This document shows positions 10,062-53,659 of a stretch of DNA of 54,955 bases, piece by piece. This DNA is from Eledone cirrhosa (Eukaryota): positions 1 to 54,955 of the forward strand of contig CAXHJY010000560.1 of NCBI GenBank assembly GCA_964016885.1. The letters are read 5' to 3'. Made by a program: the position numbers and the translations under genes. Every line of letters begins with the position of its first letter. The first letter of the stretch is position 1. Below the pieces are notes generated by a model. It was given only the letters and a program-made list of their open reading frames with translations, ran no database searches and was not told the DNA's origin.

Positions 10062-10415
10062 AATATATATGTATATATAAATATATATATATATAAATAT
10101 ATAATTATATATAAATATATATGTATATATAAATATATATAAATATATATGTATATATAAATATATATATATAAATATGTATATATATATATACGGATTA
10201 ACAAATAATAGTTAAATGCAGTCCACTTAGGTGAAGTCCAGTTATGGTATTCCAGGTAGTGGATGATATTAACGCTTGGCTTGGTTTGACTCAACAAGGC
10301 GTTTTCATAGTGATGCTGCGGGTATGCTGTAATTCCTATGTTGTAAACACTTGGAGTAATAATAAATCAGGAAAGAAGGTTTACATGGTTTGCTATACAA
10401 AAAAGTTTTTAATCA

Positions 10416-10528
10416 CATAGCTTACATTTGTTTCACTGAACTGGTATGTCTAGAGATCGCTATCCGCCTAATTTTGCGTCACTCGATCGCCAATACAGAA
10501 TTATAACCAGTCAGATCTTCGGAGCATG
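10416..10528 (-). ncRNA. Hammerhead ribozyme, CCGAAGA core, extended stem II (family F)
   Basis: Reverse complement: CATGCT CCGAAGA T CTGACTGGT...ACCAGTTCAG T GAAAC AAAT GTA AGCTATG. Confidence 0.75.
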
Positions 10529-10872
10529 CGAGAATGAAGAAAATACACAGGCAAGAAAATAAAAGAAAATATGGAGTAGTTATGGCATTCAATTAGAACA
10601 ATAACAACAACAATTATTACAACAATGCTATCAATAAAGTATTTAAGGAGACCCTGACATTACTTAGGTGGGGGGTATATAATGTATCTAATGTTACGGC
10701 GTGAAAACCAGCTGTCATAAGGCAAAAAGTATCGTAGTGTATATCAATTTTAAATTATAAAGTTAAGCTAGTTTTTACAGTCTTTCTCTTCATCTTCAAC
10801 AGTATACATGAGTGGGACCACTGTCAAAGCTCAATAGTTGTAGAGTTAATACAGAGGTTAACGAATTAATAT

Positions 10873-10921
<49 letters not shown>

Positions 10922-11256
10922 AATATAAATATATATACACATATATGTGTACATAGACACATACATACACATTAATATACACTAGTACAAAAATATACAT
11001 ACATGCAAAGAGAAAAGCGTGCTAATTGTAATATGGCAAAAAGAAGGTAAAGTAACATTGTAGTAGTGAAATGAGAAAAACTAGGATCTAGGATCAAATG
11101 ATTGCAGCAGCTGAGAAGGAGTAAGATTGTTGGTAGATGAGGTATTTACAGACTATTGTGTGGTATAGACTTGTGAAGGAAATAGTATACTTAATGAATA
11201 TATTTTTTTGTGGGTAGTAGGTATCCTAATTTAAAGCTATGTTATGTTGGTTCGAT

Positions 11257-11649
11257 TCACGGAGGTTTGAATCTTATGAATTTAGTGGCTATTCTATGTC
11301 TGCAGAAGATAGATCTTTCTAACTTATTATTAAGTAGCCTTTTAACATTTCTAAGGATATACAATAGCTCAAGATCACACAGCCCGCAATAGGACATACC
11401 TGTACTATAGGTTTTAGCAGCCGACAACTTCGACCAGTTGATAGTGTAGCTAGCGTTGCTGTCCTTCAATTCCCATATTTTTCTGGCGAGGGTGGTGGAA
11501 CCCATAAGAGCTCGATTTTTCATCGAGTGCCTGTGCACATACCATCTTTTCTTAAAAGAACCCGCGGTGGATCCTATGTAATTCCAAGTGGAGTTACCCG
11601 AGATGACAGTGCACATGTACACCAGGCTCGAATCGAGACATCTGTTCGA
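11257..11649 (-). pseudogene. GIY-YIG endonuclease C-terminal fragment (Hydra-type PLE)
   Basis: LVY...YIGST..FKKRW..H..S, CGLC..E, LLN..E....CRH. A partial inverted copy lies at 11651-11863 (+). Confidence 0.85.
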
Positions 11650-12209
11650 TTTGAAGGACAGCAACGCTAGCTACACTATCAACTGGTCGAAGTTGTCGGG
11701 TGCTAAAACCTATAGTACAGGTATGTCCTATTGCGGGCTGTGTGATCTTTAGCTATTGTATATCCTTAGAAATGTTAAAAGGCTACTTAATAATAAGTTA
11801 GAAAGATCTATCTTCTGCAGACATAGAATAGTCACTAAATTCATAAGATTCAAACCTCCGTGAATCGAACCAACATAACATAGCTTTAAATTAGGATACC
11901 TACTACCCACAAAAAAATATATTCATTAAGTATACTATTTCCTTCACAAGTCTATACCACACAATAGTCTGTAAATACCTCATCTACCAACAATCTTACT
12001 CCTTCTCAGCTGCTGCAATCATTTGATCCTAGATCCTAGTTTTTCTCATTTCACTACTACAATGTTACTTTACCTTCTTTTTGCCATATTACAATTAGCA
12101 CGCTTTTCTCTTTGCATGTATGTATATTTTTGTACGAGTGTATATTAATGTGTATGTATGTGTCTATGTACACATATATGTGTATATATATTTATATTTA
12201 TATATATGC

Positions 12210-12299
<90 letters not shown>

Positions 12300-12643
12300 A
12301 TATTAATTCGTTAACCTCTGTATTAACTCTACAACTATTGAGCTTTGACAGTGGTCCCACTCATGTATACTGTTGAAGATGAAGAGAAAGACTGTAAAAA
12401 CTAGTTTATCTTTATAATTTAAAATTGATATACACTACGATACTTTTTGCCTTATGACAGCTGGTTTTCACGCCGTAACATTAGATACATTATATACCCC
12501 CCACCTAAGTAATGTCAGGGTCTCCTTAAATACTTTATTGATAGCATTGTTGTAATAATTGTTGTTGTTATTGTTCTAATTGAATGCCATAACTACTCCA
12601 TATTTTATTTTATTTTCTTGCCTGTGTATTTTCTTCATTCTCG

Positions 12644-12756
12644 CATGCTCCGAAGATTTGACTGGTTATAATTCTGTATTGGCGATCGAGTGACGCAAAA
12701 TTAGGCGGATAGCGATCTCTAGACATACCAGTTCAGTGAAACAAATGTAAGCTATG
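12644..12756 (+). ncRNA. Hammerhead ribozyme, extended stem II (family F, inverted arm)
   Basis: Mirror of 10416-10528. Confidence 0.72.
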
Positions 12757-12804
12757 TGATTAAAAACTTTTTTGTATAGCAAACCATGTAAACCTTCTTT
12801 CCTG

Positions 12805-12848
<44 letters not shown>

Positions 12849-13428: not shown

Positions 13429-13497
13429 GTATATATATATGAATTAGTTTAGCGAGGTTTTTTTTTATATGAAATCGTGTGTCGAAACAAATATAAG

Positions 13498-14619
13498 AGT
13501 GGTAGGATGTCAATAGATAGCATGCCGAACTACATCGAGGCTATGCAACCCCACATCACCAACACGAGCGAAGTTGCACAACAAACACACGATGGGAGAG
13601 AAAAAATCCTCAACGCTCACATGGTGATGTGGACTGACATCCTAAAGCCAAGCAGACGCACTGCCAACAACTTCCATGCGTCTAACAATGGCATACCACC
13701 CTTGTATGGGCTCCGCAAAGACCACAAGACAGTCGACGACCCGACCACAGGACCACCATCAAGACACGTATGCGGAGCTAATATAGCTAGCAACTACAAG
13801 ATCTCCTACTTCCTCTCAATGGTTATACGCCCCATAATCAAGATGTCCCCAGATGTATGTGAAAGTACAGAGGACCTCCTCAGCAGAATCAGTGAGTGCA
13901 ACAAAAACAGGAGTCTATCCAACTCCATAATAGGCAGCATGGATGTGGTGTCACTGTACCCATCCATTAACATTGATTTTGCTGTGAAAAGATGTGTGGA
14001 GATGATCATTGAGAGTGAGGTGGAATTCTGCGACGTCGACACAGACGAACTGGGCCTCCTACTTAGACTTACCTACAACACTGACTACCTAGACAGCCAT
14101 GACCTTAGATGTTTCTGCCCTAGTAGACCTATAAGAGGTAGACCCCCCACCATAACCTCAATGGCAAAAAAGACTCCCATGGGAAGGTGGATTGGGTGGA
14201 CCAAAGCTATACGGACCCCCCAAAACAATGATCAGGTAAGAAAAATGGTCGCACATGCAATAGGGGCTAGTATCAAAACTACCCTAAAGGGCCACATATT
14301 TAAGTTCAATGAGAAAATCTACACCCAAAATGAGGGAGCAGCCATCGGCGTCAGCATAGCTGGTGATGTTGCCAACCTTTTCATGGTATGGTGGGAAAGG
14401 AGACTTAAAGATCTCCTTAATGAAAGCTCCATAGACCTCATCATGTACTCTCGTTATGTAGACGATATCAATATAGTTATAAGAACACCCCCCACTAGAG
14501 AGCACTAACAAGTTTGATTTAGAACGTAGCATGATGGAAAGATCCAGCAGATAGCTAATTCCATACACCAGAGTATAACTGTAACTATCGACTTCCCTTC
14601 CAAACACCCTAACAATAGG
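13498..14619 (+). pseudogene. PLE reverse transcriptase fragment, Naiad-type (insertion-in-fingers)
   Basis: YGLRKDHK, GPPSRHVCGA, STEDL, GSMDVVSLYPSI, ~130 aa to QNEGAAIG, RYVDD. Frameshifted continuation IANSIHQSITVTIDFPSKH. Confidence 0.8.
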
Positions 14620-16080
14620 TAATTTGGCATTGGTGAGTAATGTTTTCAGTGATTTTGGTTGTCTTTTGCTTTTGATTATTTTGTGTGTTTCAAGGGCTTT
14701 TTTCATTCTTGGGTTTTGTTTTAGTAGTGGGATGTTCTTGTGAATAGTGTTGTAAGCTTCCGCATTTCTTGGGTTGTGTGTTGAGATATATGATAGAATA
14801 TTGGACGTACCTTGAATTTGTTTCTGTTTCCGTAATTCATCAATGTCTATTGCTTTAGCCCTTTCTATTCCATTATTAATTAGTAATAGTGGGTACTCTC
14901 TCTCGAGTAGAATTTCCTTTAATTCTTGAAGTCTTTTATTTCGCGTTTCATAATTGGAGACAATTGTGCAAATTCTTCTTGCTAGGTTGAAAGGAATGTT
15001 CGTCTTCGTGTGCTTTGGATGGTTGGAGGTGAATAGCAGATATTGTTTGGAATCTGTTGGTTTGTAGTGTATGTCTGTTTCGATATTTGTGTCTTTTTTT
15101 AAGATTAAGATGTCCAGAAATGGGAGTTGATCTTGGCTGTATTCCATTGTGAATTGGATGTGGTTATTGATGCCGTTTATTAAGTTTTTGAAATCCTTCA
15201 GTTGGTCGAGTGTGTGGGACCAAAGAATGAGGCAATCATCCAAGTAGCGTTTCCAATTCTCTGATAAATATTTGTGGAAGTTCAATCCGTATTTAGATTT
15301 GGACTGTTCATATATCTGGACTTCTAAGTATGCCATGACTAAGTTGGCATAAGTTGGAGCGGCTTTTGTACCCATCGCAGTCCCCGATATTTGATTGTAA
15401 GTATTGCCATCGAAATCAAAAAAGTTGTTCTGTAGGATGAATTTTAATCCCTCGGTGATGAAGCTTTTTTCTATTCTGTCAGGTATCTCATTGGGATATT
15501 TCTCTAGCCAGAATCCTATTGCTTCTAGTCCGTATTGGTGTGGGATCGTTGTGTAGAGATTCACTACATCGAAAGACACAATAATAGTGTCGTTGTTGAC
15601 ATGTTTCGGGAGGTGGTTTAAGAGGTCCAGATCGTCTCTTACAAGGCTTGGTATGTGTTTCAGTATTGGTTTCAGTAGTATGTCTATAAAGTTACTCAAT
15701 CTGTGTGTTTCACATTGTGGGCCCGCTACAATTGGTCTTAATTTAAGGTCTGTGGGGTATTGTGTGTTCACGCAGGCTGAGGTGGATTGTTTACAGGCAT
15801 CGTTATTTTACACTTGTGGATCTTCGGAAGTCCGTAAAGGTTGCTGGTTTTGTATTCAAAATGTGTTAAATAATCGCGTTCCTTTTTAGTTAGGTCTTCC
15901 TGGTATCGATAAATCAGTGTGTTTAATTTGGTCATTATTTTTGATTGCTGGTAGTTTTTTTACTCTTTCATAGTAATTAGTATTTTGTAAGAGAGAGAAC
16001 ATAGAATTTTTATATTTTTCAGCCTCCATAATGACAACAGTACTTCCCTTGTCCGCTCCCTTAATTATAATGTCCGTATT
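14620..16080 (-). pseudogene. PLE reverse transcriptase fragment, Neptune/Nematis-type, truncated at both ends
   Basis: ADKG, YGLPKIHK (frameshifted), RPIVAGP, SFDVVNLYTTIP, QISGTAMGT, RYLDD, LPFLD, KPTD..QYL..SNHP. Homology ends at LLTNAKL. Confidence 0.88.
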
Positions 16081-19341: not shown

Positions 19342-22777
<3,436 letters not shown>

Positions 22778-22832
22778 AAATAAAATAAAGATAAATAAAA
22801 GTCAAATGATTAAAATTTAGCTTCGTTTATTA

Positions 22833-22885
22833 CTGCTATATATATTTCAGTGACAGCCATCTTTGGCTGTGACCCCTTCAGGCAG
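22833..22885 (-). ncRNA. Hammerhead ribozyme variant (family B, inverted arm)
   Basis: Mirror of 23108-23160. Confidence 0.65.
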
Positions 22886-23107
22886 TTTGAATTAGTATGG
22901 TATAGACAAGTACATATGTTGTTTAGGTGTATGATATTGTCAATACTCTGATATGCCCAGTTCCTTGTTGGGTTGTTAATTCACTGGGGAACTGGAGTCA
23001 GTTCCCCAGTGAATTAACAACCCAACAAGGAACTGGGCATATCAGAGTATTGACAATATCATACACCTAAACAACATATGTACTTGTCTATACCATACTA
23101 ATTCAAA

Positions 23108-23160
23108 CTGCCTGAAGGGGTCACAGCCAAAGATGGCTGTCACTGAAATATATATAGCAG
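23108..23160 (+). ncRNA. Hammerhead ribozyme variant (family B)
   Basis: CTGC CTGAAGG, stem II ACAGCC aaagat GGCTGT, GAAAT ATAT ATA GCAG. A9G variant. Confidence 0.68.
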
Positions 23161-23367
23161 TAATAAACGAAGCTAAATTTTAATCATTTGACTTTTATTT
23201 ATCTTTATTTTACACTACTCCGGAGTAACCAAACCAACCTGCGCACTTCGTCGAGTGCTCCAGCCTGCATACTGAGGTGTTGGTATACAACCAACATAAA
23301 CTCAAAATCTATATATATATGTATATATATATACACTATATATATATATATATATATATACACTTAT

Positions 23368-23417
<50 letters not shown>

Positions 23418-23446
23418 CACTATATATATATATATATATATATATA

Positions 23447-23496
<50 letters not shown>

Positions 23497-23759
23497 ATAT
23501 ATATACACATATATATATACACTATATATATATATATACATATATACACTATATATATGTATATATATATATACACTATATATATATATATATATACACT
23601 ATATATATGTATATATATATATATATACTATATATATATATATATATATATACAATATATATATATACAATATATATATATAGTGTATATACAATATATA
23701 TATATATAGTGCATATACATTATATATATATATATAGTGTATATATATATATATATATA

Positions 23760-23788
<29 letters not shown>

Positions 23789-23790
<2 letters not shown>

Positions 23791-24296
23791 AGTCGTTTGG
23801 AAGCCTCGACAATGCAAATGGGTAAATCTCCGGGTAACAAGGTCCGGTGGTGGAGAGAGAGATGTAAGTGTACGTTGAGATGCGTGGTGTTTATAAGATG
23901 TGTGAGATGTGTAGAATGAAGGAAGAGTATAAAGGATAAAATAGAAATAACAACACAAGAGAGAGTTACCTTGGGAGAGATTTAATAGTCCCTATATATT
24001 TTGGATTCACATCCATCAACTGGGGGTTTTTTCTGGGGTGGGGGAAAAGGTTGTCTGTCGGACAAGTCCGGAACGCGTCCTTCGCTGTTTGTTGTTTTGA
24101 AAATCCCTTCATTCTACACATCTCACACATCTTATAAACACCACGCATCTCAACCTACACCCACTTACATCTCTCTCTCCACCACCGGACCTTGTTACCC
24201 GGAGATTTACCCATTTGCATTGTCGAGGCTTCCAAACGACTTAAAGATATTTACTTATTGTTCCACAATGCTTCAAGCAGACTTTAATACTCTCTT
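23789..24296 (+). mobile_element. Family I element, second copy
   Basis: Near-identical to 19793-20301. Confidence 0.78.
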
Positions 24297-26811
<2,515 letters not shown>

Positions 26812-27238
26812 TGGTGGCTGCCAACGCTACACCTGTGACAATTATTGACACATAGTGCTGGGCCCATGGTACCATGTAACGACAAGTGCAGAAAGATCTC
26901 CAAATATAAAGCAATGCCTGTGCCGTGAAGCTTTTATAGTGAGCAAAGGCACTGCACAAAGCCAGTCCCACTCCCTTAACCAAGATGATATTTACCAAAA
27001 AGAAGAACAAGTCAACATCATTGGATACCATCAGGTTTGCAGTTGTTATATCAGAGTTTTCCTTCTCCTAGAATTCTGCCTTGACAAAGGCTAAGGGGTC
27101 ATCTCTCCCGGTGATTTTGGATGGCCATTGACTCTTATTAGCTCCTTTTCCCTTTGACAGGTTTTGTTTTTAGTCCAGCAGGATGTCCAAAGTCACCCTC
27201 CTCACCAAGAAACCTTGGTGGGGTTGCCAGTTTAGTCA
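26812..27238 (-). mobile_element. RTE-related non-autonomous element, family D (internally deleted, 5'-truncated)
   Basis: Matches 33709-34222 with a ~110-bp deletion near 26826. Confidence 0.65.
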
Positions 27239-27304
27239 TATAGTGTATATATATATATATATATGTATGTATATATATACCTCTATGTATGTATATATAT
27301 ATCT

Positions 27305-27739
27305 CCGGGAGAGATGACCCCTTAGCCTCCGGGAGAGATGACCCCTTAGCCTTTGTCAAGGCAGAATTCTAGGAGAAGGAAAACTCTGATATAACACCTG
27401 CAACCCTGATGGTATCCAATGATGTTGACTTGTTCTTCTTTTTGGTAAATATCATCTTGGTTAAGAGAGTGGGACTGGCTTTGTGCAGTGCCTTTGCTCA
27501 CTATAAAAGCTTCACGGCACAGACATTGCTTTATATCTGGAGATCTCTCTGCACGTGTCGTCACATGGTACCATTGGCCCAGCACTATGTGTCAATAATT
27601 GTCACAAGTGTAGTGTTTGTACCAGAGTTTTCATGTCACAGGCTGGACTAAAAAGTCACACTCGTTCAGCGCATCGGTAGGGGTACTCCTACATGGATAT
27701 AAAGTAGTGGCTGTACTCGAAAACGAGTTGGCAGCCACC
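27305..27739 (+). mobile_element. Family D element, 5'-truncated, opposite orientation
   Basis: Reverse complement of 33709-34116. The first ~24 nt are tandemly duplicated. Confidence 0.65.
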
Positions 27740-27843: not shown

Positions 27844-28218
<375 letters not shown>

Positions 28219-28421: not shown

Positions 28422-31400
28422 TTATCTCCAGCCTGTATAGGTTGGCCACTGGTGTAAGAGGGAGTTTGTTGCTGCTGCCCTTAGGTTTCCCTCGTGTCTT
28501 GCTGTGGGCTCATCCGGTATCCTGGATAACAAGGTGTCGAGATGTTTCTTAAAGACATCCACCTCCACGTCATGCAAGTCTCTCAGATGCCTCGGCAGCC
28601 TGTTGAAGAGTTGAGGGCCCTTGAATCCCAGGCTATTGCAATACCTGCTCATTATTCTAGATGTGGAAGACGGGACCTTTGGCACCACACATTGACGTCC
28701 TGTTCGACGGTTGGTCCAGCTCCCAATGCCAAAGTTTGGTGCTAGTCCCTCCAGGATTTTCCACATGTAGATCACTGTGTATCTCTCCCGTCTTCGCTCC
28801 AAGGAGTAGAGGTTCAGTTCCTTTAGCCTCTCCCAGTAGCTTGTCTCCCTCATCTTGGCAATCCTCTTGGTGTAGCTTCGCTGGATTGCCTCAAGCTCCG
28901 TGGTTAGTTTGACACTATGGGGTGACCTCAACTGGGAGCAGTAGTACAAGCGGCTTAGGACAAAAGTCCTCCACAGTGTCAACATGGTGTCTCGATCTCT
29001 TGTCCGGAAAGTCCTCAAGATCCAGCCAGCGAGTCGTCTGCACGTTGTCGCCACTTTCATGATGTGTGAAGAAAAAGATGCATCATCGCTCATGTCTATG
29101 CCCAGGTCTCGTATCGATTTTGACACGGGGATATCGGTCCCTCCTGGTACTGTGTAGCTGTGTTCCACTATATTTGTGTTTGCAGGTTTGTATTGTAGGG
29201 CTTGGAATTTGCCAGCATTAAACTGCATGTTGTTTTCTTCCGCCCATCTGTATATGGCATCCAGATCCTGCTGTAAAAGGGCAGCGTCAGCCGGGTTTTT
29301 GATTGCCTGTGCTACCTTAGTGTCATCAGCATAGCTAGTGAGGGATGTTGTTGCATGCACCACACAGGGCATGTCCGAGAGAGCCACCAAAAACAGTAGT
29401 GGTCCCAGGACTGTCCCCTGGGGCACACCACTTGTTATCGGTGTTTCCCTCGAGAGGGCCCCATTTGCTGAGACTGCCTGGCTTCTGTCCCTTAGGAAGC
29501 CATGCAGCCACTCACCTACTTTTCCAGTTATGCCGAGTCCGTGTAGGTTGTGACATATCATTCCGTGGTCGACCTTGTCAAAGGCCTTCGCAAAGTCAAG
29601 ATATATCACGTCTACATGTGAGCTGTCTAGTAGTTGTCTCAGTACCCAGTCGTAGTGATGTAGCAGCTGTGTAAGGCAGCTTCTTCCTGGGCGGAAACCA
29701 TGTTGCGTGCTAGTCAGGCGGTCATTTTCTTCGAGGAAAGTGATTAGTTTCTTTCTGATGACTCGCTCCATGACCTTACTGATATGCGACGTCAGGGAGA
29801 CTGGCCTATAGTTCTTGGCCTCCGCTCTACTACCTCCTTTATGGATAGGGCATATTGTGCCTTCTTTCAGCTCCCTGGGTAGTACACCGCTAGCCAAGGA
29901 GCTTCTGAAGAGCATCTTCAGTGGAGTTGCTAAGGCCTGCTTACATATTTTTAAGAGAACATGCTGGGAATCCATCAGGTCCAGCAGCCGAGTCTGTTCT
30001 AATTTCATCAATGGCGTACACCACATCCTCCTCCGTTATGTCTATGTGGTTGATGGTTGCCATTTCTTGATGTAGTGTTGTGGCATCAAAGAACTCCTCT
30101 GGCTTCGTTATTTGCATGTGCCTCAGTACTGTTCGTTCAGTATTTCACATATCTCTTGGGGATTTTCGGTTAATGAACCGTCCGTGTGGAAGAGTGGCCC
30201 AATCTTGCAGTGTACTGAGGCAGTTTCTTTTGCAAATTTAAAGAAGGCCTTGGGGTTTGTTTTAATGTTTTCTATGGCCCTGTTCTCTTTCTTTGCCCTC
30301 TCATTCTCATGTGAAAATTTGAGTGCAATCTCGGTGTCAAGTAGTGCACGTTTCAAATAGGATTCCTTCGTGTTTTTGTTTTGTTGACTATTCAACTGGT
30401 TTGAGAGTTTAGTTCTACGTCTCATAAGGATTTTCCTATCTCTGGGAATAAGATTTTTGTGTCTGTTTGCCTCTTTCTCCGGGACACACTTTTTGCATAT
30501 GGTGTGTATCGTTGTCATGAAGTGTTGAAATTGTGTGTTAGTGTCTTGTGTGGCGGTGTTTTCACTCCATGTTTGCTTCCGGATTTCACTCTTAATCTTT
30601 TTCCAGTTAGCCTTGTAGAAGTTAAGGTTGGATAGCGTCCCGGAGCTTATTGGTGGTTTTGTCTCTGTTGGTTCTCTTGGACCACATATTATTAGCTCTA
30701 CTAAGTTATGATCCGAGAGAATTGTTGGTGTCACCTTTACATTGTGGATGAGCACTTCGTTGTTTGTAAAACAGAGGTCCAGGACATTTTCGCCTCTTGT
30801 TGGGAGGAGTATTGCTTGCTCCATGAACAGCCTGTGTGTGAGGGCCAGCAGGGATTCCGTCTGTCTCTGTTCTATTGACGTCATTCCAGGGAGGAGGTGG
30901 CCCTCAGGCTATTTGACCTTTGGTAGGTTGAAGTCTCCCAGCAGTAGGATGTTGAGACCCTGGTCCAGTTTGTCAAGGACCTCTTCTATCCTACTTAGGC
31001 TATCCTCAAATTTACCCTCATGACTGGGGGCATCGGGCGGCCGATATGTGACACATATTACTGTCTGTAGTTGCTTCATATGTATTATCAGTGTGTCACA
31101 GACTGAGTTTGAATGTGTCAACAGTACAATTGGTGTGACATCTTCACGGATATACAGAGCAACCCCACCATGAGTTCTCTCCTTCCTGTCCGAACGAAAT
31201 ACAGTATATTTCGGTATATATATTTCTGCATCTGCTATACTGCTTGTCAGGTGCGTTTCGGTTAGTGCCATGCATAGTGCTTGATTGCTTATGGCTAAGT
31301 CTCCCAGGTAGGAAATTTTACTCATATTACTGAGTTTCACCAGGCCCCTGACAGTCAGCAGCAGCACTGGTGTGACTTTTGGGGTGCCAGTAATGGCTGT
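28422..31400 (-). pseudogene. LINE ORF2: AP-like endonuclease + reverse transcriptase, disrupted
   Basis: ALTETHL, HGGVALY, YRPP, GDFNLP, LDL, SDH, NYRPVSLTS, QHGFR, YLDFAKAFD, SGVPQGTVLGP, YADD. In-frame stop at 30909-30911 and lesions near 30120 and 29955. Confidence 0.93.
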
Positions 31401-32296
31401 CGGTATGACACCTGGTCTGGTGTCAGCGGCGGCCACTCTGGGTCCCTTAACTGCGGTGGTCTCGAGTGCTGGTGTGGATGACCCTGGCTCTGGAGACGAT
31501 GCAGCCAGGTCAGCTGGCCCACAATCTTCTCTGCCATCACTAAAAAATTTTTCTGATCTGCTGCTGACATCTGTATCTCGTCGGCATGTACGTGCCTTTT
31601 CCTTGTTGGTGCGGCACGCGTGACATCAGCATACTTCTGGAGCGGCTTATTTCGGCTTTGGCTTGGGCATGTTGCGCGAGTATGATGGGCATAGTTCGTT
31701 TGAGACCTAGGGTGGGCGAATCTGCATCCCATCCCTGTCTCTCCATGCCAGCATGTCCCGTTCTTGAAAAACTTGCACATTACTTGGGGTTTTTTGCTCC
31801 CAGTATCTCGGTGCTTTCTGTTCTTCCTTTGAACAGTTGTCCACTGGTCCCTCTGCGCTTGGTTCTCCTTCGGAAGGTGATTTCGCTTTTCACCTTTGCC
31901 CTTAGCTTGTTGGTTGCCCGGCCTGCCCTCCCTGCCTGTGGCGGGGGGTATATCATTTTCTTTCAGGTCCGTGCTTGTGCTCTCCTCCTTTTCTTTTTCC
32001 TCCTCCTTTTCCCTCTCCTTCTCCTCGTCCCTCCCTTCGGTTTTCTCCTCCCTGAGGACACGGCTTAGCATCGCCATATGTGGCGCTATGAGGACATACG
32101 CCTTCTCAATTTCTTTTCTCTTTCTCTCTATCTGTGCCAGGGTCCTCAGAAACCCATGGCTCTTCAGGTTCTCCGCCATCTTTTTGCTTGGTGGAGACCT
32201 ATCAGCCTTGGTCCACCCCTTGATCAAAACCGCTAGTTCCATCTTTGACCAGTTTCGTTTACTCCTAATTTCACCTTTTTCCTGCATGCAGTCCAT
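31355..32296 (-). CDS. LINE ORF1 protein (Myb/SANT-like N-terminus, acidic linker, CCCH zinc finger)
   Basis: Open 313-aa ORF upstream of and overlapping ORF2. Contains NWSKMELAVLIKGW...GFLRTLAQIERKRKEI and CKFFKNGTCWHGETGMGCRFAH. Confidence 0.78.
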   Translation of the reverse strand: MDCMQEKGEIRSKRNWSKMELAVLIKGWTKADRSPPSKKMAENLKSHGFLRTLAQIERKRKEIEKAYVLIAPHMAMLSRVLREEKTEGRDEEKEREKEEEKEKEESTSTDLKENDIPPATGREGRPGNQQAKGKGEKRNHLPKENQAQRDQWTTVQRKNRKHRDTGSKKPQVMCKFFKNGTCWHGETGMGCRFAHPRSQTNYAHHTRATCPSQSRNKPLQKYADVTRAAPTRKRHVHADEIQMSAADQKNFLVMAEKIVGQLTWLHRLQSQGHPHQHSRPPQLRDPEWPPLTPDQVSYRQPLLAPQKSHQCCC

Positions 32297-32532
32297 TTCG
32301 CTGTGGAGGGGAGAAAGAGAGACAGTGGGAAGTGTAGGGTAGAGGTTAGAGAGGGACAGCGGGAGGGAGGGGGATAGAGATATAACTCCAGTGAGATAAA
32401 TATAACTCCAGCGACAAAAAGAAAGAGAAACAGAAGAAAAGAAAAGAAAAGGGGGAGAGAGACAGAAGAGGGGAGCGAGAGAGATAGCGGGAAGAGTGGG
32501 AGGGGGAGGTCAGAGGGAGAGAGAGGAGATAA

Positions 32533-35070: not shown

Positions 35071-35293
35071 ATATATATATATATATATATATATGTAGAT
35101 AAATCTACCAAGAGTTTACGGTAGTGTCCAATCCGTATGAAGAACTCAATGTAATCCGGATATCATGGAAAGAAGAGATGCAATGAAAAATCACTTTCGG
35201 TGAAAGATAAACGGAATACAGAGTCAAGATAAAATATTAAAAAAATAATGAATAAAACAATGAAACAGTTCCTTATATTAAACAAAAAAAGTT

Positions 35294-35442
35294 CATTATT
35301 TAACGATCGTTTCTGGGATATATATGTGTTAGAATTGGCATGTATATTTAACAGATCTATGTACAAAATTATACAAAATTATACAAACTATCAAAATTAA
35401 ATATACATACCAACTCATATATATGCCGTCTTCAGAAATAAT
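35294..35442 (-). ncRNA. Hammerhead ribozyme, extended stem II
   Basis: Homolog of 3010-3159. Confidence 0.75.
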
Positions 35443-35465
35443 ATTTATTTCTGAAGAAATAATAT

Positions 35466-35601
35466 TTATTTCTGAAGACGGCATATATATGAGTTGGTAT
35501 GTATATTTAATTTTGATAGTTTGTATAATTTTGTACATAGATCTGTTAAATATACATGCCAATTCTATCACATATATATCCCAGAAACGATCGTTAAATA
35601 A
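35466..35601 (+). ncRNA. Hammerhead ribozyme, extended stem II
   Basis: Homolog of 3010-3159 with one 11-nt loop unit deleted. Confidence 0.72.
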
Positions 35602-35671
35602 TGAACTTTTTTTGTTTAATATAAGGAACTGTTTCATTGTTTTATTCATTATTTTTTAAATATTTTATATA

Positions 35672-39925: not shown

Positions 39926-40127
39926 ACGAAGGAAATGTGGTAAGGAAGCAGGTGGACCATAACGCACCAAAGTACTCAATACTTGAGGTAGTAGAGTGGA
40001 TAATAGGAACCAGTAAGACCCCGACAGCTGAGCTCAAGCCGTTTCGACGGCTAATTCTGGACTGAGTCCAGAATTAGCCGTCGAAACGGCTTGAGCTCAG
40101 CTGTCGGGGTCTTACTGGTTCCTATTA
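39924..40127 (-). mobile_element. Family K element with inverted arm
   Basis: 39924-40062 is the reverse complement of 2156-2293, and 40064-40127 is a partial forward copy. Confidence 0.7.
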
Positions 40128-40143
40128 TATATATATATATACA

Positions 40144-44202: not shown

Positions 44203-44207
<5 letters not shown>

Positions 44208-45437
44208 ATATTTATTAAAATAACAGATTAAAGTTTAAGCAAAGAATCGCTGCTTTCACCCTTAACGGGATCTTCTGAAACTAACAAAGTCAATCTGTAA
44301 ACGCAGAACTGGATATTTCAAAAAACGTTGCAGCCGGAGGAAGACAGGAAGACGATACTTTGGTTCGTGGAAACGTTCGCTGGCAAAGAACGTGAAAGAA
44401 CGAATAATACGTTATTAATAGGAGCGGTGAAAAACAATTACGCGCAAAGACAGAACCACGTTTATGGTATAATAGAGGTCGTAGACTAATGTTCTCTTAG
44501 GTGGTGCATAGAGACGTTCTCTGGCAATGAACGAAAAAACGAAGATAATAAGTCATATGTGGAGCACGCAAAGACAAAACCACGTAAATGGTATAGCAGA
44601 AGTCGTAGACTAAAATTCTAACTAGGAGACCAAATGAATCTCCGCTACAGAGTTAAGAACAAAGTAAATAAATACAATACAGAAGTAATAGAAACAAATA
44701 AATACATACACGCAAACAGATACGTACATACACAAGCATACGAAAAACCTTACCATAGGTATACAAACCATGCACATATAAATATGTGTGTATGTGTATG
44801 CTTGTGTACAAATAAATAAATAATTATATAAACGTATATAAGTAAATAAATACGTATATAACAAGCGCACACACATACCTACAAATAAATACACGAATGT
44901 TCGGAGACGTAAGTCAACTAAAACAAGAAGTACACATATACACACACCCACCATACGTACGAACCTGCATACTCACGCAGACGCGCAAAACTCCCGTATA
45001 CACATAGCCAAACCCTAAATATGTAAAAATTAAACGCCAAACATACCTTCACAAAACATACGGGTAATATATACTTTCCTATGCAAATAAGTAAAGGAAT
45101 AAACAAAACATATACTTAGCTCCCACATCAAGACGTAAAATATCCACGTATAGATCGTGCTATCCGTTAGGGTATAACGTGGGGCTGTAATACAGGAAAG
45201 CTTTGAGCAATTTATGTTTACAAGCCGAAATTGCCTCAGATTTTTTGTTTAAGATGTGGTCTGTGGCGTAGAGTATTTCAAGGGCCTCAGCGGCGCAGAA
45301 GTCACATGGTTTTTTATTTCCGTTATACGATCTACCCCTATCTAGGATCTCCCAGTGTAACTTATATTGGGTGTGGTTGTCTTTTAGACTCCAGATATAA
45401 GCTGAAAATGACGTCATATTCCTTCTTAGAGGGTATA
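44203..45437 (-). mobile_element. 5'-truncated Hydra-type PLE, family L
   Basis: EN C-terminal fragment, 3' UTR with two imperfect repeats (44369-44490, 44510-44615), and a pLTR end shared with 27948. Confidence 0.8.
45160..45436 (-). pseudogene. GIY-YIG endonuclease C-terminal fragment (Hydra-type)
   Basis: [12 protein letters not shown]....W.IL...CDFC..E...ILNKKSE..S.CKH. Confidence 0.82.
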
Positions 45438-45473
45438 CAATATATATATATATATATATATATATAGTGTATA

Positions 45474-45571
<98 letters not shown>

Positions 45572-45605
45572 TATATATTTATATATATATATATATATAT
45601 ATACA

Positions 45606-45660
<55 letters not shown>

Positions 45661-45665
<5 letters not shown>

Positions 45666-45979
45666 CAGGAAAGAAGGTTTACATGGTTTGCTATACAAAA
45701 AAGTTTTTAATCACATAGCTTACATTTGTTTCACTGAACTGGTATGTCTAGAGATCGCTATCCGCCTAATTTTGCGTCACTCGATCGCCAATACAGAATT
45801 ATAACCAGTTAGATCTTCGGAGCATGCGAGAATGAAGAAAATACACAGGCAAGAAAAGAAAAGAAAATATGGAGTAGTTATGGCATTCAATTAGAAAAAT
45901 AACAACAACAAATTATTACAACAATGCTATCAATAAACTACCTAAGTGGACTGCATTTAACTATTATTTGTTAATCCGT
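45661..45979 (+). mobile_element. Family F pLTR: inverted arm plus 40-bp terminal tail
   Basis: 45661-45936 matches 10363-10638, and 45940-45979 is the reverse complement of 10193-10232. Confidence 0.85.
45714..45826 (-). ncRNA. Hammerhead ribozyme, extended stem II (family F)
   Basis: Copy of 10416-10528. Confidence 0.7.
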
Positions 45980-46003
45980 ATATATATATATATATATATA
46001 TAT

Positions 46004-46086
<83 letters not shown>

Positions 46087-46103
46087 TATACACTATATCT
46101 ATA

Positions 46104-46136
<33 letters not shown>

Positions 46137-46188
46137 TATATATATATATATATATATATATACACTATATATATATATATATATAGTG

Positions 46189-46306
<118 letters not shown>

Positions 46307-46363
46307 ATATATATATATATATATATACACTATATATATATGTATATATATATATACACTATA

Positions 46364-46400
<37 letters not shown>

Positions 46401-46463
46401 TATATATATATATATATGTATATATATATACATATATATATATACATATAAACACTATAAATG

Positions 46464-46747
<284 letters not shown>

Positions 46748-46809
46748 TATATATATATATGTATATATAAATATACACTATATATATATATGTATATATA
46801 TATATACAC

Positions 46810-46849
<40 letters not shown>

Positions 46850-46959
46850 AACACTATATATATATATATATATATGTTTGTATATATACACTATATATAT
46901 AAATATATATATATATATACACTCTATATCTATATATATATATATGTATATATATATGT

Positions 46960-48133
46960 ATTGTGCATGCAATTAGGGGAGTGTTCCGAGATCTTGTTGA
47001 GGAGAGGGCCTTTGGCGAATAGAATCTCATAGCTCTCGGAGATACAGAGGTCACAGCAATTATGGCCTCCCTTGTAGGATCGCGCTCTCTGGAGTAGTCT
47101 CCATTGGGTCTTGAAGGGGATGGAGTTCCTTTTAATGTGCCAGATGTGGGCGGCCAGTCTAGTTTGGTTAGATTTGTCTGGGCGCCGGAACGAATGTGTG
47201 TGGGCGTACCAGAGAGTCTTAAAACTGTTAGAAGTCATCCCGATGTACGAGTTTCTTTTTTCATCGGGGCCTGAGAGTACATCGCATATATAGACGAGAT
47301 CTTTTTTTAGACAGTTGTTGTTGAGAGGGCAGGTAGTCTTATCAGGGCAATTGCAATTGCCATCGGTTGCTGGATGGGCTTCGGAAAAAGTAGACTGATT
47401 AGGCTTCTTGCTGTTATTGTTGGCTAAGTTCCTAGCTACATTAGGTGTGGTAGAGTAAGAGAGTCTAATGGTATTCTTATTAAGGATTGTATAGTACCTA
47501 TGTTGGGTGGGGAAGTGTTTTTGTAAGAGAGTGAAGAAAAGTTTAGCTACAGGTGTTGAACATTCGCGGTTGAAGGGGGGGGTTGTACCAGCTAATGTGC
47601 CTTCGCCTATTCTTCCTGGGTGGGCGTGGGGCTATACTAAGGTAGGTGATCTTATCTCTAAAGCCGCTGCGGGCCAGGGCCTCGTTGTAATAGGGGGCTG
47701 CTGCTCTAAAGATATCTTCATTGGCGGCGAGGCTAGATATCCTAATGGAGACACTTTTCACTAGGTTGTCTAATATATTTTTGGGGTGGTTAGAATTAAC
47801 GTCTATATATCTAAGGGATTCATTAGATTTGTGGTACGGGTAGTAAAGGGAAGTTTCTAAGTCGAGGGTAACGTCCAGGAAGTTAGCTTTAGTTAAGTTC
47901 GAATCTAAGATAATCCTAAGGCCTAAGTTTTTAAAGAAGGTGTAAAAGTTTTTCCTGAACCCATCCGTGGTCCTGGGGTTGATTTTGTGGAGGGCAAAGA
48001 GGCCGTCATCTCTGTAGAGACCGCCGGAGAGGCCTGTGAGGAGGGTCTTCAACCTGTGGAGGATGAACAGACCCACAAAGTCACTTAATTCAGCTGAGTC
48101 GCTAGCACCCATGCTAACGTCGAAGGGGGTCTC
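46960..48133 (-). pseudogene. Hydra-type PLE RT C-half + GIY-YIG, truncated at both ends
   Basis: [34 protein letters not shown] (frameshift in C run ~47575), CNCPDKTTCPLNNNC, LVY...YIG, CDLC, CMH. Confidence 0.88.
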
Positions 48134-48209
<76 letters not shown>

Positions 48210-48652
48210 TATATATATATGTATATATATATATATATATATGAGACCCCCTTCGACGGGTCAAACTGGAAATGCACTATCGGAACGTGCACGGGTACAC
48301 CGTCAACAAATCAGAGAACAAAATGTCCGTCAGATACCCCTAAGCGGCCACCTGGCAACATGTGGTCAGGGAATATTTATAATATTCCCATTCTAAAAAT
48401 TACACATCCCAAGTGAAATCAAGAGAAAAATCAAAGAAAAGAATTTTATTGATAAATTCAAACCCAAGCTTAATGAACAATAATAACGCCTAGGGGTATT
48501 ACTTCTACTACCACTATGACCACGACCACTAACAACAACAACGACAACAACAATAATAATAATAATAAAAGTGATGTTGATGGTGATGATTAATAGAAAA
48601 TGCTATTTTCATCATTTCAAAAAGCAAAACAATTGATGCGTTGGGTATGACT

Positions 48653-48830
48653 ATTGGTCGTTAGCATGCTCAACCAGCCGTGACGCTTAAACCAATCAGC
48701 TGTAGTAATTCAGTGAAACTACACACTGATTGGTCGAAATACAGTTTACAGGGCTTTGCATTCTGGAGCCATTTTTCTCTGTATAAAATGTATAAAAGGT
48801 AGTAAATTTACCCATCTCATTACAGTTGAA
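48653..48830 (+). promoter_or_regulatory. Putative pol II promoter in pLTR
   Basis: CCAAT boxes at 48653(-), 48692(+) and 48729(-), TATAAAAG at 48791, and Inr-like CAGTT ~32 nt downstream. Confidence 0.55.
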
Positions 48831-48860
48831 AATTGCAAACTCGACTGTCACCACATATCA

Positions 48861-48899
48861 TGAACCTGAAGATTGCGAAAGCATGAAAGTACTTGTTCA
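48861..48899 (+). ncRNA. Minimal hammerhead ribozyme
   Basis: TGAAC CTGAAGA T TGC gaaa GCA T GAAAG TA CTT GTTCA. Confidence 0.8.
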
Positions 48900-49090
48900 A
48901 TTAACACTTAGAATTTAATATTCTATCATACTATTTCATTATAATACCATATTATATATATTTTAAAGGATTGTAAATAAAACGAGTAAATCAGACAAAG
49001 TTGGAATTCCTCTTATTAATATAATCTTCTATACACAATCATACACACCCGTGTATATTTACCTATCTATATATATATATATATATGTAC

Positions 49091-49124
<34 letters not shown>

Positions 49125-49231
49125 TATATATATATATGTATATATATATATACACTATATATATATATATATATATATATACACTATATATATATATATA
49201 TGTGTATATATACACTATATATATATATATG

Positions 49232-49264
<33 letters not shown>

Positions 49265-49281
49265 TATATATATATATATAA

Positions 49282-49343
<62 letters not shown>

Positions 49344-49396
49344 GTATATATATAATTAACAACAAAGAACGCTTAGAGCATAGGTATATCTTTACT

Positions 49397-49442
49397 TGCT
49401 AACAGTGTTTCGTCCACACTATAAGTGGGACTCATCAGAGCA
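49397..49442 (-). ncRNA. Hammerhead ribozyme (family A, inverted arm)
   Basis: Mirror of 53482-53527. Confidence 0.8.
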
Positions 49443-49945
49443 TAAAGAGTGATTACATATTACACAAGCAATAACAAATCCAAGACATTGAAGAAATAAA
49501 AAATAAACATTGAAAAATAAGCATTGAAAAATAAGAGGTGCTATCAGTCACAGTTGGGCAGGGTGCTGTTAACATACAGTTACATACAAGCATACGCATA
49601 AGCATGAGCACCCGCATGCAACCACACAACAGGCAGCCATATGCAACACATATAGTATAGACTAATACAAATAACATATCATGGACGAGTATGCAAAAGC
49701 TAAGAGATGAATGGTGGATATACAATGGGTAAAAATACAATGGGTAAAAGTAAGATAAACAAAGGATAAAAATAGATTAACCATAGATAAAAAATAGATT
49801 AACCATGGATAAGAGATAGAGAATAGATAAGGAATAGACAAGAATAGATGAGATAGATAGGAGTAGATAAAAATAGATAAAAAATAGATAAAAAATAGAC
49901 AAATAATATATATAAAAAATATATATATAAAATATACAGATAATA

Positions 49946-51334
49946 GAGGGTGGGTTGTACCGGGATGACGCCCTACTCTCCATAGATACTAGTAAGTATA
50001 ATATAGTGCGCATTAGGAAAAAGCTGCATAGTTTCTTTAAAACCTTTAATCTGTCCATTACTATGGATATAAATGATAGAACTGTTAACTTCCTTGATGT
50101 TACATTAGACTTGGATAACCATACGTACACAGCGTACCATAAGCCTAATGAATTGCTGACTTACGTGAATACCAACTCTAACCACCCTAGGTCGGTCATC
50201 AGTGGTATATTGAAGGGCGTATCTAACAGAATAAGTTCACTCTCACATAGTGAAGAGGCGTTTAACTCGCAGGCTGATTACTATAATGATGCCTTAGCTA
50301 GATCCGGCTTTAGGGACAACTGGCATTATACCCAGGGAAATAATAGTCCTAATAGAAGCTCTACCAGTGTTGTTATAACACATAATATGTCCATTGGTAA
50401 TAGAGGTGTCTCGAATAGGAGGGTTCTAAATGCCGGTGAAATGAACCAGCAGGGTACCATTAGTCTAAGTAATAGCAATGGTAGGCCTCGCAGCTCCCCG
50501 CATAAATTAGGTGAGCATAGTAACCGTAGAAATAATAATATTAATAATAATAATAATAATAATAATGATGGAAATAAAAAGAATAGAAGAAGATTGAATA
50601 CATATTTCAACCCCCCTTTTAACTCTGAAGTGGCTATAAATATTCCTAGGGCCTTCTTCTCTGTGTTAGAAAGGAACTTCCCTCCTGGTAATAGGTACCA
50701 CTCTATCCTCAATAAGAATGTTGTTAAACTTTCGTATTCTACAACCCAAAATCTGGCCTCTCATCTAGCCAATACTAATAATAGGAAAATAAAGGAAGGC
50801 CTGGACAACCTAAGCCTAGGGGAAAACACGGTAGTGGACAGAGGGAGCCTGGACACACGTGGTCAGCAAGCTGGTGATCATTCTGAGAATAGCATCACCA
50901 GAAATTGTAACTGTAGAAGGGCTTCGGGCTGCCCCCTGAATGGTTTCTGCCTTATTAGAAACATAGTTTACGCGTGTGATGTGGTAACTACGGCGCCCAC
51001 TAAAACTTATATAGGATCAACCTCCACCCCCTTTAAGACCAGGTTTAACTCTCACCAGTGCACTTTTAGGCACAATAAACTGAGGAATTCCACCTCCTTG
51101 GCAGCGTACGTCCACAATTTAAAAAATGCACGAACACATTACACCCTCACTTGGCGGCAGGTTGCTAAATCCCATCCATATACTCCTCATAATAGAGTAT
51201 GTAACCTATGCCTTGCTGAATCCCACTCTATTATATTTGCTAAATGCTCTCTACTAAACAGAAAGTCAGAAATATTTTCCTCTTGCCCCCACCGAATATT
51301 AAGCTCTTTCTTCTACTTTAAACCTATTAGCTAG
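49946..51334 (+). pseudogene. PLE RT C-half + GIY-YIG endonuclease (Hydra-type), 5'-truncated but open
   Basis: GLYRDD, NFLDVTLDL, SNHP, YFNPPFN, CNCRRASGCPLNGFC, IVY...YIGST, CNLC, CPH. Confidence 0.92.
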
Positions 51335-53481
51335 CACTTTCTTAATTCTCCAGTTGGGCTATCTTGTGTAACTGTCTCTTATTGTGTGTAATTGTTTCCT
51401 ATTGTTTGTCTTCTATGTATATGAGTCTGTGTGTGTATATGTATGCCTGCGGGAGAATATTGATCTGGATATTGAGGTGTACAGGTGAGTTGGTGTGTAT
51501 GTTAATAAGCACCCCTGTTTGGCACAGTGGATGTGACCCATCCACGATCGCCTAGCCACCCTTAGTGCATTGGTGGGTCTATCCCAACGTGTACTTTACG
51601 GATCTGTACCTCTGTATGCGCATGAGTTATGATGTAATATATCTATGTAGAGCGTGTGCTGCGATATAGGCTGCACAAATGAAATCTAGCCTGTAACTGT
51701 GGGCGGACCTGTGCCATCTCGCCGTGAGCAGTAGATACGTAGCACATGCACGTGTTACCCTCCTATTCTGTGGTTTAAGATCTACAGGCTGACTTCGGAG
51801 AGCTTTGGCCCGGTGTTGTAGTCTTTCTAGCACAATCGGCCTTCCATATATTGACGGTCGTTGTTATTATCCCAAAAGTAATGTTTTGGCCCCGATAGCC
51901 CTCCGCAGTTATTAACGGTCTGTTTACACTTGAATCGGGCGACTACACGTGCGGACATGCATCTCTTCGTAAGAATTTACTTTGATTAATTTTTGCTGCA
52001 TCTCCTCGTAAGAATTTATCTTGAATGTATTATCTGTGACCAGTGTGAGCGACTGTGGTGGATTCTGCCTTTGTTGGCCTAATGTGATATTTCTGTGTAT
52101 TATATCCGCTTTGATCCGGGTGTCCTACGCTGTGTGTGTGTGCGTGTGTGTCTGTATATACATTTATATGTGTATGGGTGTAGGTGGTTGTATATGTCTA
52201 TCTATAAATATATATATATGTATACCGTCTCTGCATATGCATGTGGTGTGTGTATATGCATATACGTACTAACCATATTGTTGTGTATAATCTTGGGATG
52301 CCTCAATGTTGTGATTTCATGGATATTGGCTTTTGAAGCTATTTTTTATATGCGCTGTTGAGTATGCATATTAACCCGCCTAACCCAACTGTATTTGCTT
52401 GCTTTCGGCTAGCCCACCTGCACTTGCTTGCTTTCGGCCCACTTATCTGCCTCTTGATGTTCATGTTGATGTAAACGATTTTGCTTGCTACCTTGTGACG
52501 TTGTGACACTCAGTTATCTGCCCATGGATGTTCCTGCTGCTGCATGTGAATTTACCTACCTTCCTTGCATACGTCCTTGCTAGTGATGTGGATATACCTC
52601 TGTTGACCAATGGATTCCTGCCCGAGTGTGAACCTTTTGTGATTGCCCCACCGCTCAACTGTGTGAATGCACACCCGTGACTTTCGAGTGTGAACTTCTG
52701 TGACTGCCTAACCCGGATGTCTCCATTGCATTGCAATGGTCAACTCAATCGAGTGTGGACATAGCACCTGTTGATTATAAATCTCATTTGAGCATTTGAT
52801 TGTTGTGATATGGCTAACTGTAACACTTAAGGCGTTCGTGTGCCCCTGATATATTCAAGAATTATATTCAAAACATATATATCTTATCTCACTTTACTTT
52901 ATTTTATTTTATTTCATTGTATTTTATTTTATATAATTTTATTTTATTTTATTCTTTACCCTTTATCTCTATTATCTGTATATTTTATATATATATTTTT
53001 TATATTTTTTATATATATTATTTGTCTATTTTTTATCTATTTTTTATCTATTTTTATCTACTCCTATCTATCTCATCTATTCTTGTCTATTCCTTATCTA
53101 TTCTCTATCTCTTATCCATGGTTAATCTATTTTTTATCTATGGTTAATCTATTTTTATCCTTTGTTTATCTTACTTTTACCCATTGTATTTTTACCCATT
53201 GTATATCCACCATTCATCTCTTAGCTTTTGCATACTCGTCCATGATATGTTATTTGTATTAGTCTATACTATATGTGTTGCATATGGCTGCCTGTTGTGT
53301 GGTTGCATGCGGGTGCTCATGCTTATGCGTATGCTTGTATGTAACTGTATGTTAACAGCACCCTGCCCAACTGTGACTGATAGCACCTCTTATTTTTCAA
53401 TGCTTATTTTTCAATGTTTATTTTTTATTTCTTCAATGTCTTGGATTTGTTATTGCTTGTGTAATATGTAATCACTCTTTA

Positions 53482-53527
53482 TGCTCTGATGAGTCCCACT
53501 TATAGTGTGGACGAAACACTGTTAGCA
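53482..53527 (+). ncRNA. Type I minimal hammerhead ribozyme (family A)
   Basis: TGCT CTGATGA GTCC-CACT tat AGTG-t-GGAC GAAAC act GTT AGCA. Confidence 0.87.
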
Positions 53528-53659
53528 AGTAAAGATATACCTATGCTCTAAGCGTTCTTTGTTGTTAATTATATTACGGCTCTGTCCTCAGACATCGAGC
53601 TAACCTTATACTGCCTATTGGATAAGTGGAGTGTTACACACTCCTAATCCTCTCCCTTA

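Follow-up and report, generated by a model that had tools for sequence, protein, structure and literature searches.

An inverted copy of a Hydra-type element end at the 5' junction of a Neptune-type Penelope-like insertion in Eledone cirrhosa: a likely fold-back junction in TA repeats

Inverted duplications of the flank, primed by TA/AT, have been described on the reciprocal end of L1 insertions, together with an inversion case in which the cDNA was joined to the flank with 0 bp of homology (10.1101/2024.12.14.628481). For R2, snap-back 5' junctions form a class in which priming is mostly by the cDNA and less often by nearby DNA (PMC11371274, PMC11204384). Snap-back SD-MMEJ often uses TA/AT primers and needs microhomology at the final joint (PMC5728401), and breaks arising in TA repeats are mended by Pol theta (PMC13645644). 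Among Penelope-like elements (PLEs), the Hydra clade has been defined by a CxCX5C linker and by CxxC and CxH motifs flanking a conserved E and N, its families show a preference for insertion into (TA)n (26 of 27 supplement rows, with one octopus row), and Neptune elements may carry a 3' tail of 30-40 nt (PMC8557442; such a tail also in PMC11167929). By what route the 5' end of a PLE insertion is completed, and inverted structures arise, is an open question according to PMC8557442.

The window analysed here is the whole stretch of 54,955 nt of contig CAXHJY010000560.1 from Eledone cirrhosa (Table 1). Over 16 nt, 48118-48133 is the perfect reverse complement of 48243-48258 (GAGACCCCCTTCGACG). 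These arms enclose a TA tract, with a minus-strand Hydra-type fragment on one side and a plus-strand Neptune-type fragment on the other. The first-pass annotation had described this perfect inverted copy around about 110 bp of TA (109 nt by our count), with the plus-strand 16-mer fused straight to a Neptune-type endonuclease (EN), and both points were confirmed, GQTG of the EN beginning right after the 16-mer. The inverted copy begins at the exact base where Hydra meets TA, and its other limit is the truncated 5' end of Neptune; outward, the match stops at 16 nt and inward it reaches through 12 nt of TA only. When up to 3 mismatches are allowed, the 16-mer occurs in the window at just these two sites, whereas two matches were reached in none of 100 shuffles. 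Among 56 TA tracts of at least 20 nt (two of them, at the window ends, with one flank each), the focal tract is the only one whose two edges form an inverted repeat of more than 6 nt, and the chance expectation of such a repeat in the whole window is about 4e-7. The region folds into a strong hairpin (-52.5 kcal/mol, computed fold).

Table 1. Features at and around the junction, in coordinates of the window.
Feature	Position	Strand	Remarks
TA tract left of Hydra piece	45979..46957	.	plus strand: 16 G and 11 CAC versus 5 C and 3 GTG
Hydra-type Penelope-like fragment	46962..48133	-	RT (xPFDVSMG to thumb), CxCx5C linker and GIY-YIG EN as far as CxH
Template arm	48118..48133	-	first 16 nt of Hydra fragment, in-frame codons E-T-P-F-D-(V)
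TA tract	48134..48242	.	109 nt, run lengths [12]G[29]G[30]CAC[11]G[21]
Inverted 16-nt copy of Hydra end, templated insertion	48243..48258	+	zero depth; family records begin at 48259
Neptune-type GIY-YIG EN C-terminus	48259..48486	+	GQTG to stop codons; 5'-truncated inside YIG motif
Neptune 3' UTR / pseudo-LTR to shorter family 3' end	48487..49023	+	read loose ends
Minimal hammerhead ribozyme motif, core at 48866	48861..48899	+	motif scan with stems I and II; fold
Optional 38-nt tail with AC-rich hairpin, to longer family 3' end	49024..49061	+	
TA tract at Neptune 3' end	49064..49354	.	same G/CAC signature, plus strand

The stretch 48118-48258 is likely a further instance of the known fold-back junction at retroelement 5' ends. 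As in the L1 cases, a truncated retroelement bears at its 5' junction an inverted copy of the flank, with a self-annealing TA/AT primer, but the element is Penelope-like, the TA loop of about 85 nt contrasts with the small L1 hairpin and the copied flank is the end of another element. In R2, too, a stretch from close by is found copied on the opposite strand where the target meets the truncated cDNA; the R2 cDNA end mostly copies itself, whereas the Neptune cDNA end has no homology with the Hydra template; an invasion primed by the cDNA through microhomology was rejected on the same ground. The insertion is an inverted copy of the nearby flank, forms a longer repeat together with its primer (16 nt plus 12 nt of TA) and, for the 16-mer, is foreign to the downstream sequence, as in snap-back templated insertions. 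With its short insert within a longer inverted repeat, its TA/AT primer and its TA break site it resembles snap-back SD-MMEJ and Pol theta insertions, from which it differs in the primer repeat, which may be as far as about 100 nt away from the end, and in the final joint: at 48258/48259 the Hydra sequence goes on with T and Neptune begins with G. We did not file the 16-mer joint as strict SD-MMEJ, although it is snap-back-like, because it has no microhomology. Taken as a whole, the locus shares domain motifs, TA targets, tail, hammerhead and inverted 5'-end structures with the Hydra and Neptune PLEs of PMC8557442. In those, the usual inverted copy reaches the 3' end of the element itself, whereas the present copy has a length of 16 nt, takes its start from the same base, is set apart by TA and adjoins an element of another clade.

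By the motif marks of PMC8557442, the left piece is assigned from its translation to the Hydra type. It carries a C-terminal GIY-YIG EN after the RT, a CxCX5C linker (CNCPDKTTC) and, in the EN, CDLC..E..N..E..CMH, with no CxxC between GIY and YIG and no CCHH. The region of the RWK and DKT motifs, present respectively in 32 and 36 of the 37 listed relatives of at least 650 aa, falls outside the fragment. A protein search recovered 150 relatives among 1412 candidates (120 of them listed), and the closest one listed, P0002 (53% identity over 165 aa), reads VPFDVSMG; the 16-mer is therefore in-frame Hydra RT coding sequence. The fragment is 5'-truncated and contains one frameshift, near the G8 run at 47575-47582, and no in-frame stop in about 390 codons. 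It was reported in the first-pass annotation to have no 3' UTR of its own, and indeed it ends at CxH, its final codons, stop codon, 3' UTR and ribozyme being missing; the motif scan found no hammerhead within it. Beyond CxH, relatives have 6-34 residues (median 11, in the 86 of the 120 listed with a recognisable N..E..CxH motif), and the other Hydra-type copies of the window extend over 1-2.3 kb from the ORF end to the 3' end, with a hammerhead motif in two of the three other families scored. The missing 3' end may be due to a deletion at the TA edge or to internal priming. A 15-nt direct repeat containing G surrounds the piece (46947-46961 is identical to 48135-48149) and is compatible with a Hydra target duplication, but such a repeat is insignificant inside TA. 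Among metagenome contigs, 158 pattern matches to Hydra EN relatives were obtained and none was confirmed; the viral contigs searched gave no match.

The right piece is assigned to the Neptune type by its motifs and its likeness to P0001, the single relative found (one of 4 candidates), which is an RT+EN protein with a Neptune-type CX2-5CxxC linker; the position of this linker lies outside our fragment. The two ENs are 64% identical over 72 aa, and the fragment has one internal stop in 75 codons. Both H of the CCHH motif are present, followed by the stop and the UTR, and the two C, present in P0001, lie upstream of the truncation. A hammerhead in the pseudo-LTR and an optional tail of 30-40 nt, which mark the Neptune clade, were both recovered. 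The window gave no match in Rfam at gathering thresholds, the hammerhead motif scoring below them, and none of 7 proteins compared exceeded the curated cut-off of Pfam, with sub-threshold RVT_1 in two other ORFs only. Two alternative 3' ends exist in the family, 38 nt apart (49023 and 49061) and TA-rich beyond both: loose ends behind the shorter one open with TA repeats in 37 records (run X5) and 28 records (run X1), and those behind the longer one (355 reads, run X12) have a TA-rich consensus with an agreement of 0.61. This fits the two RT start sites described in PMC11167929, and the AC-rich hairpin of the tail resembles the RT start region of the anole element in that paper. The Neptune piece is likely an ordinary 5'-truncated insertion into TA.

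The Neptune family is very abundant in reads, and we used this to ask where its sequence starts. Four of the 14 listed runs, which possibly come from other individuals or species, were aligned over 48222-49066. Depth in the bin 48222-48250 was 0 in all four, and in the raw-read run X12 the bin 48251-48279 reached 0.73 and 0.68 of the next bin, where 0.72 is expected if coverage starts at 48259. Two of the 24 listed records start exactly at 48259, one of which, X2#9, has 31 other letters before it. Coverage of the family starts at 48259 and the 16-mer is therefore foreign to it. Whether it could be native Neptune sequence, a point raised by the first-pass annotation, was thus settled in the negative by these records and by P0001, which has CKEIYI before GQTG where the 16-mer reads RPPST in the same frame. 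Since the 16-mer is foreign to Neptune and templated from the Hydra end, some DNA was copied at the junction. In the two best-matching runs, our copy differs from nearly all reads at 6 of 40 listed positions, which places its divergence from the family at about 0.7% or more. Metagenome contigs contained no exact match to the Neptune start. No read or contig of the four runs crosses the junction, which is known from the assembly; this zero depth neither confirms nor refutes it, since one run had its repeats at 48222-48253 masked out and the junction is a single-copy site looked for in what may be other individuals. We also rejected a dating from the perfect 16/16 match, which is expected with a probability of 0.72 at 1% and 0.38 at 3% divergence.

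The copying of DNA at the junction, as proposed in the first-pass annotation, was thus retained, but not its further claim that the TA tract was made or wholly copied in a single multi-template event. The interruptions of the focal tract, G and CAC, are on the same strand as in neighbouring tracts, and its variant profile, compared with those of its two neighbours, gives cosines of 0.90 and 0.96 when read on the same strand, against 0.28 and 0.00 when the strands are opposed. This focal signature comprises four interruptions, and the tracts are not independent of one another. The CAC variant, with its phase shift, is found in 16 of the 18 tracts of at least 60 nt located right of 23 kb and in 1 of the 13 located left of it (Fisher p 8e-6, an optimistic value with a post hoc boundary and related tracts). 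Of these 31 tracts, 24 lean towards the plus form, 4 the opposite way (for instance 45440-45662, which is nearby) and 3 are tied. In eight hand-picked inserts, the Hydra and Neptune pieces and six inverted-arm units, both flanks always lean alike, although the outer ends of the six units point opposite ways; as a control, TA-rich stretches inside inverted element pairs flip with the element. The two long tracts of a local duplication share runs of 9 interruptions in the same order, and interruptions are therefore heritable. The variant sets vary with position and not with element family. The simplest reading is that the tracts are one old TA array split by many insertions, of which 48134-48242 is likely a remnant that would have served as the fold-back loop and 49064-49354 likely the other half of the Neptune target.

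Two further ideas on the origin of the tract find no support in this comparison. The suggestion that the PLE RT lays down (TA)n itself is disfavoured because the variants follow the chromosome strand and position: the tract shares the CAC/G variants and strand of its neighbours whatever the element orientation, instead of following the element as in telomerase-like repeat addition. Copying of the tract in the same event as the inversion is likewise disfavoured because 12 nt at most are mirrored, and the Neptune 3' end is ordinary and then followed by TA. Half of the tract being a mirror copy was discarded at the first mismatch, at 13 nt. We also rejected random sequencing noise as the source of the interruptions (their order is kept in the duplicates and both polarities occur inside inverted elements), as well as a derivation of CAC from the Neptune tail, which has a similar 7-mer but whose strand is not tracked by the polarity. 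TA tracts of at least 60 nt total 16.7 kb of the window and display higher-order repeats and a strong plus-strand bias, with variant sets that differ by region (CAC from 23 kb, GTATG at 20-26 kb and G[5]G at 1-974) and are usable as a map of array growth.

The reading that we prefer, and regard as moderately probable, is that Neptune inserted into leftover older TA beside the Hydra piece, and that the target end folded back, copied 16 nt and was end-joined to the cDNA. A long TA array with G/CAC variants, whose signature is observed, would have been split by many Penelope-like insertions, Hydra included. The Neptune RNP would then have cut TA beside the Hydra 5' end, as in known TPRT, and reverse transcription would have run from the normal tail end to a halt at 48259, these two ends being observed. 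The upstream target 3' end, self-complementary TA, may have turned back on itself and annealed no more than about 12 nt from the Hydra edge; it would then have been extended through 16 nt of Hydra DNA, either by a repair polymerase of the host, for instance Pol theta, or by the RT acting on DNA. The hairpin would finally have been opened and joined to the truncated Neptune cDNA, at the observed junction without visible microhomology. New synthesis would thus amount to about 16-28 nt, most of the TA being pre-existing.

We ranked this target-end fold-back first because one junction accounts for everything without coincidence: an exact 16-nt arm with just 12 nt of mirrored TA, a 16-mer made of Hydra coding sequence and foreign to Neptune, a Neptune 3' end normal for its family (ribozyme, tail) with TA beyond it, as in an insertion into existing TA, and the regional CAC/G signature and strand kept on both flanks. 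Further fold-back junctions in the same window also argue for it. The order Hydra-then-Neptune was preferred by parsimony, although Hydra has no stop in about 390 codons and Neptune one in 75, which points weakly to the opposite order. Other points count against the target-end fold-back: the junction comes from the assembly, uncrossed in the four runs; the loop is of about 85 nt, versus small hairpins in the L1 inverted duplications; the microhomology usually needed by strict SD-MMEJ is missing at 48258/48259; R2 snap-back is mostly cDNA-primed and less often uses flanking DNA; the signature comprises four focal interruptions, with a post hoc boundary at 23 kb and 4 of 31 tracts leaning the opposite way; and the missing Hydra 3' end is left unexplained.

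Alternatively, Hydra could have come second, its truncated cDNA being made onto target TA, folding back on itself, copying its own last 16 nt and being joined to an older, possibly trimmed, Neptune piece. Self snap-back of the cDNA is the commonest kind in R2 and is seen in the Hydra-type piece at 27947-28047; the focal Hydra piece is free of stop codons and flanked by the 15-nt direct repeat, a weak sign inside TA. We consider this order unlikely, given that the entire 109-nt tract must have been copied or retained, that the re-joining must have hit the Neptune piece exactly or inside it with no TA remaining, and that loops measure 0-4 nt in the other fold-backs of the window whose two arms derive from a single element. 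A later repair, with both elements already in place, is rather unlikely too: a break in the TA would have been healed by snap-back end joining, adding the 16-mer and deleting the right part of the tract and the Neptune start. Pol theta does repair broken TA repeats and leaves templated insertions in them (PMC13645644), snap-back synthesis is often primed by TA/AT (PMC5728401) and the lost Hydra 3' end suggests deletions at TA edges here, but one extra event is required, the deletion is unnecessary as 5' truncation is normal for these elements (PMC8557442), and the final joint lacks microhomology. The core common to these two readings and to the target-end fold-back, old TA and a fold-back, is taken jointly very probable.

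The remaining possibilities depart from this core. Both sides of a TA cut could have primed RT in one event, on a Hydra RNA and a Neptune RNA, the gap being bridged by TA copied from the flank and by a snap-back. The two pieces do stand 5' to 5' like converging cDNAs, the Hydra piece has no normal 3' end, as might an RNA copied in trans, and a PLE protein in purified form cleaved each of the two strands and extended them (PMC11167929). This is nevertheless improbable: two RNAs of different clades are needed at one cut, a 5'-to-5' arrangement is expected by chance in a crowded array, and simple persistence explains a local signature on the local strand. De novo synthesis of the tract by the PLE RT, through telomerase-like repeat addition, appears highly improbable, even though telomerase is sister to the PLE RTs (PMC8557442), some bacterial RTs are reported to make tandem repeats (PMC12039810, PMC12632851) and long TA tracts occupy so much of the window: in a fresh tract one would not expect the CAC/G variants of the region, on the strand usual there, tract polarity is independent of element orientation and variants differ by position rather than family. 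Our literature search, of incomplete coverage, found no report of a PLE RT making (TA)n. Finally, a chimera of the assembly or library, in which a TA fold-back during amplification or sequencing joined two loci, is favoured by the strong hairpin and by the junction being spanned by no independent record in the four runs. Sequencing fold-backs typically mirror long stretches, whereas the mirrored stretch is of just 16 nt here. The regional tract signature is moreover present on both sides, as in true neighbours, and the runs compared may be of other individuals or species, for a locus that is one copy of a very abundant family; we hold a chimera to be quite improbable.

Other fold-back structures and elements were observed in the window. 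The 101-nt piece at 27947-28047 is the 3' part of a Hydra-type element of the same family as 44204-45440; at 27947-28099 its 5' end folds back over 28 nt without a loop, with a 12-nt re-copy at 28047 and then TA, and this is a clean cDNA snap-back scar. The hammerhead motifs of this family, at 28018 and 44277 on the minus strand, have CAGAAGA and not CTGAAGA in both copies, a core that is possibly inactive or a variant common to the family. Near-perfect palindromes between or near TA tracts, with arms/loops of 203/4 nt (22792-23201), 64/1 nt (40000-40128), about 200/24 nt (35229-35668) and 164/56 nt (1210-1593), are probably fold-back insertions. At 27015-27425, an inverted copy breaks off at a short TA tract and resumes beyond it; 24 nt are re-copied in tandem at 27303-27352, and the whole is another complex templated junction. 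A local duplication of about 4 kb (19685-22774 and 23310-26798), including a TA tract of 2.3-2.5 kb, could be real or correspond to two haplotypes assembled in tandem. At 13453-16071, a plus-strand PLE RT fragment of another type, which we take to be Naiad-like by its motifs, meets a minus-strand Neptune-type RT head-on with no TA between them. A largely intact LINE, presumably CR1/L2-like, lies at 28422-32509 on the minus strand and encodes an ORF1 with a CCCH-like motif, an AP endonuclease and an RT. At least four further Hydra-type families are present (3571-5939, 10194-12807, 44204-45440 and 49355-53657), one nearly full-length with RWR and DKT motifs and two whose 3' ends are long and inverted. 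The 55 kb thus contain five divergent lineages of the Hydra type, more than the single octopus family that the PMC8557442 supplement lists.

A broader version of the one-event reading would have the PLE RT remodel its TA target in one reaction, using both cut ends and RNAs of two clades, copying flank TA and sealing by snap-back. If true, the enzyme would produce chimeras between clades and also drive the huge TA arrays that it targets, which would tie PLE RTs to microsatellite growth and telomerase-like behaviour; the evidence points away from this and we judge it distinctly unlikely. The junction is instead a natural example, of modest use, of a known junction type, here in a Penelope-like element. 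The variant letters in TA tracts can separate target DNA from newly made DNA. TA-rich genomes like that of Eledone cirrhosa hold many such scars, and a census of their junctions could separate fold-back of the cDNA from fold-back of the target end.
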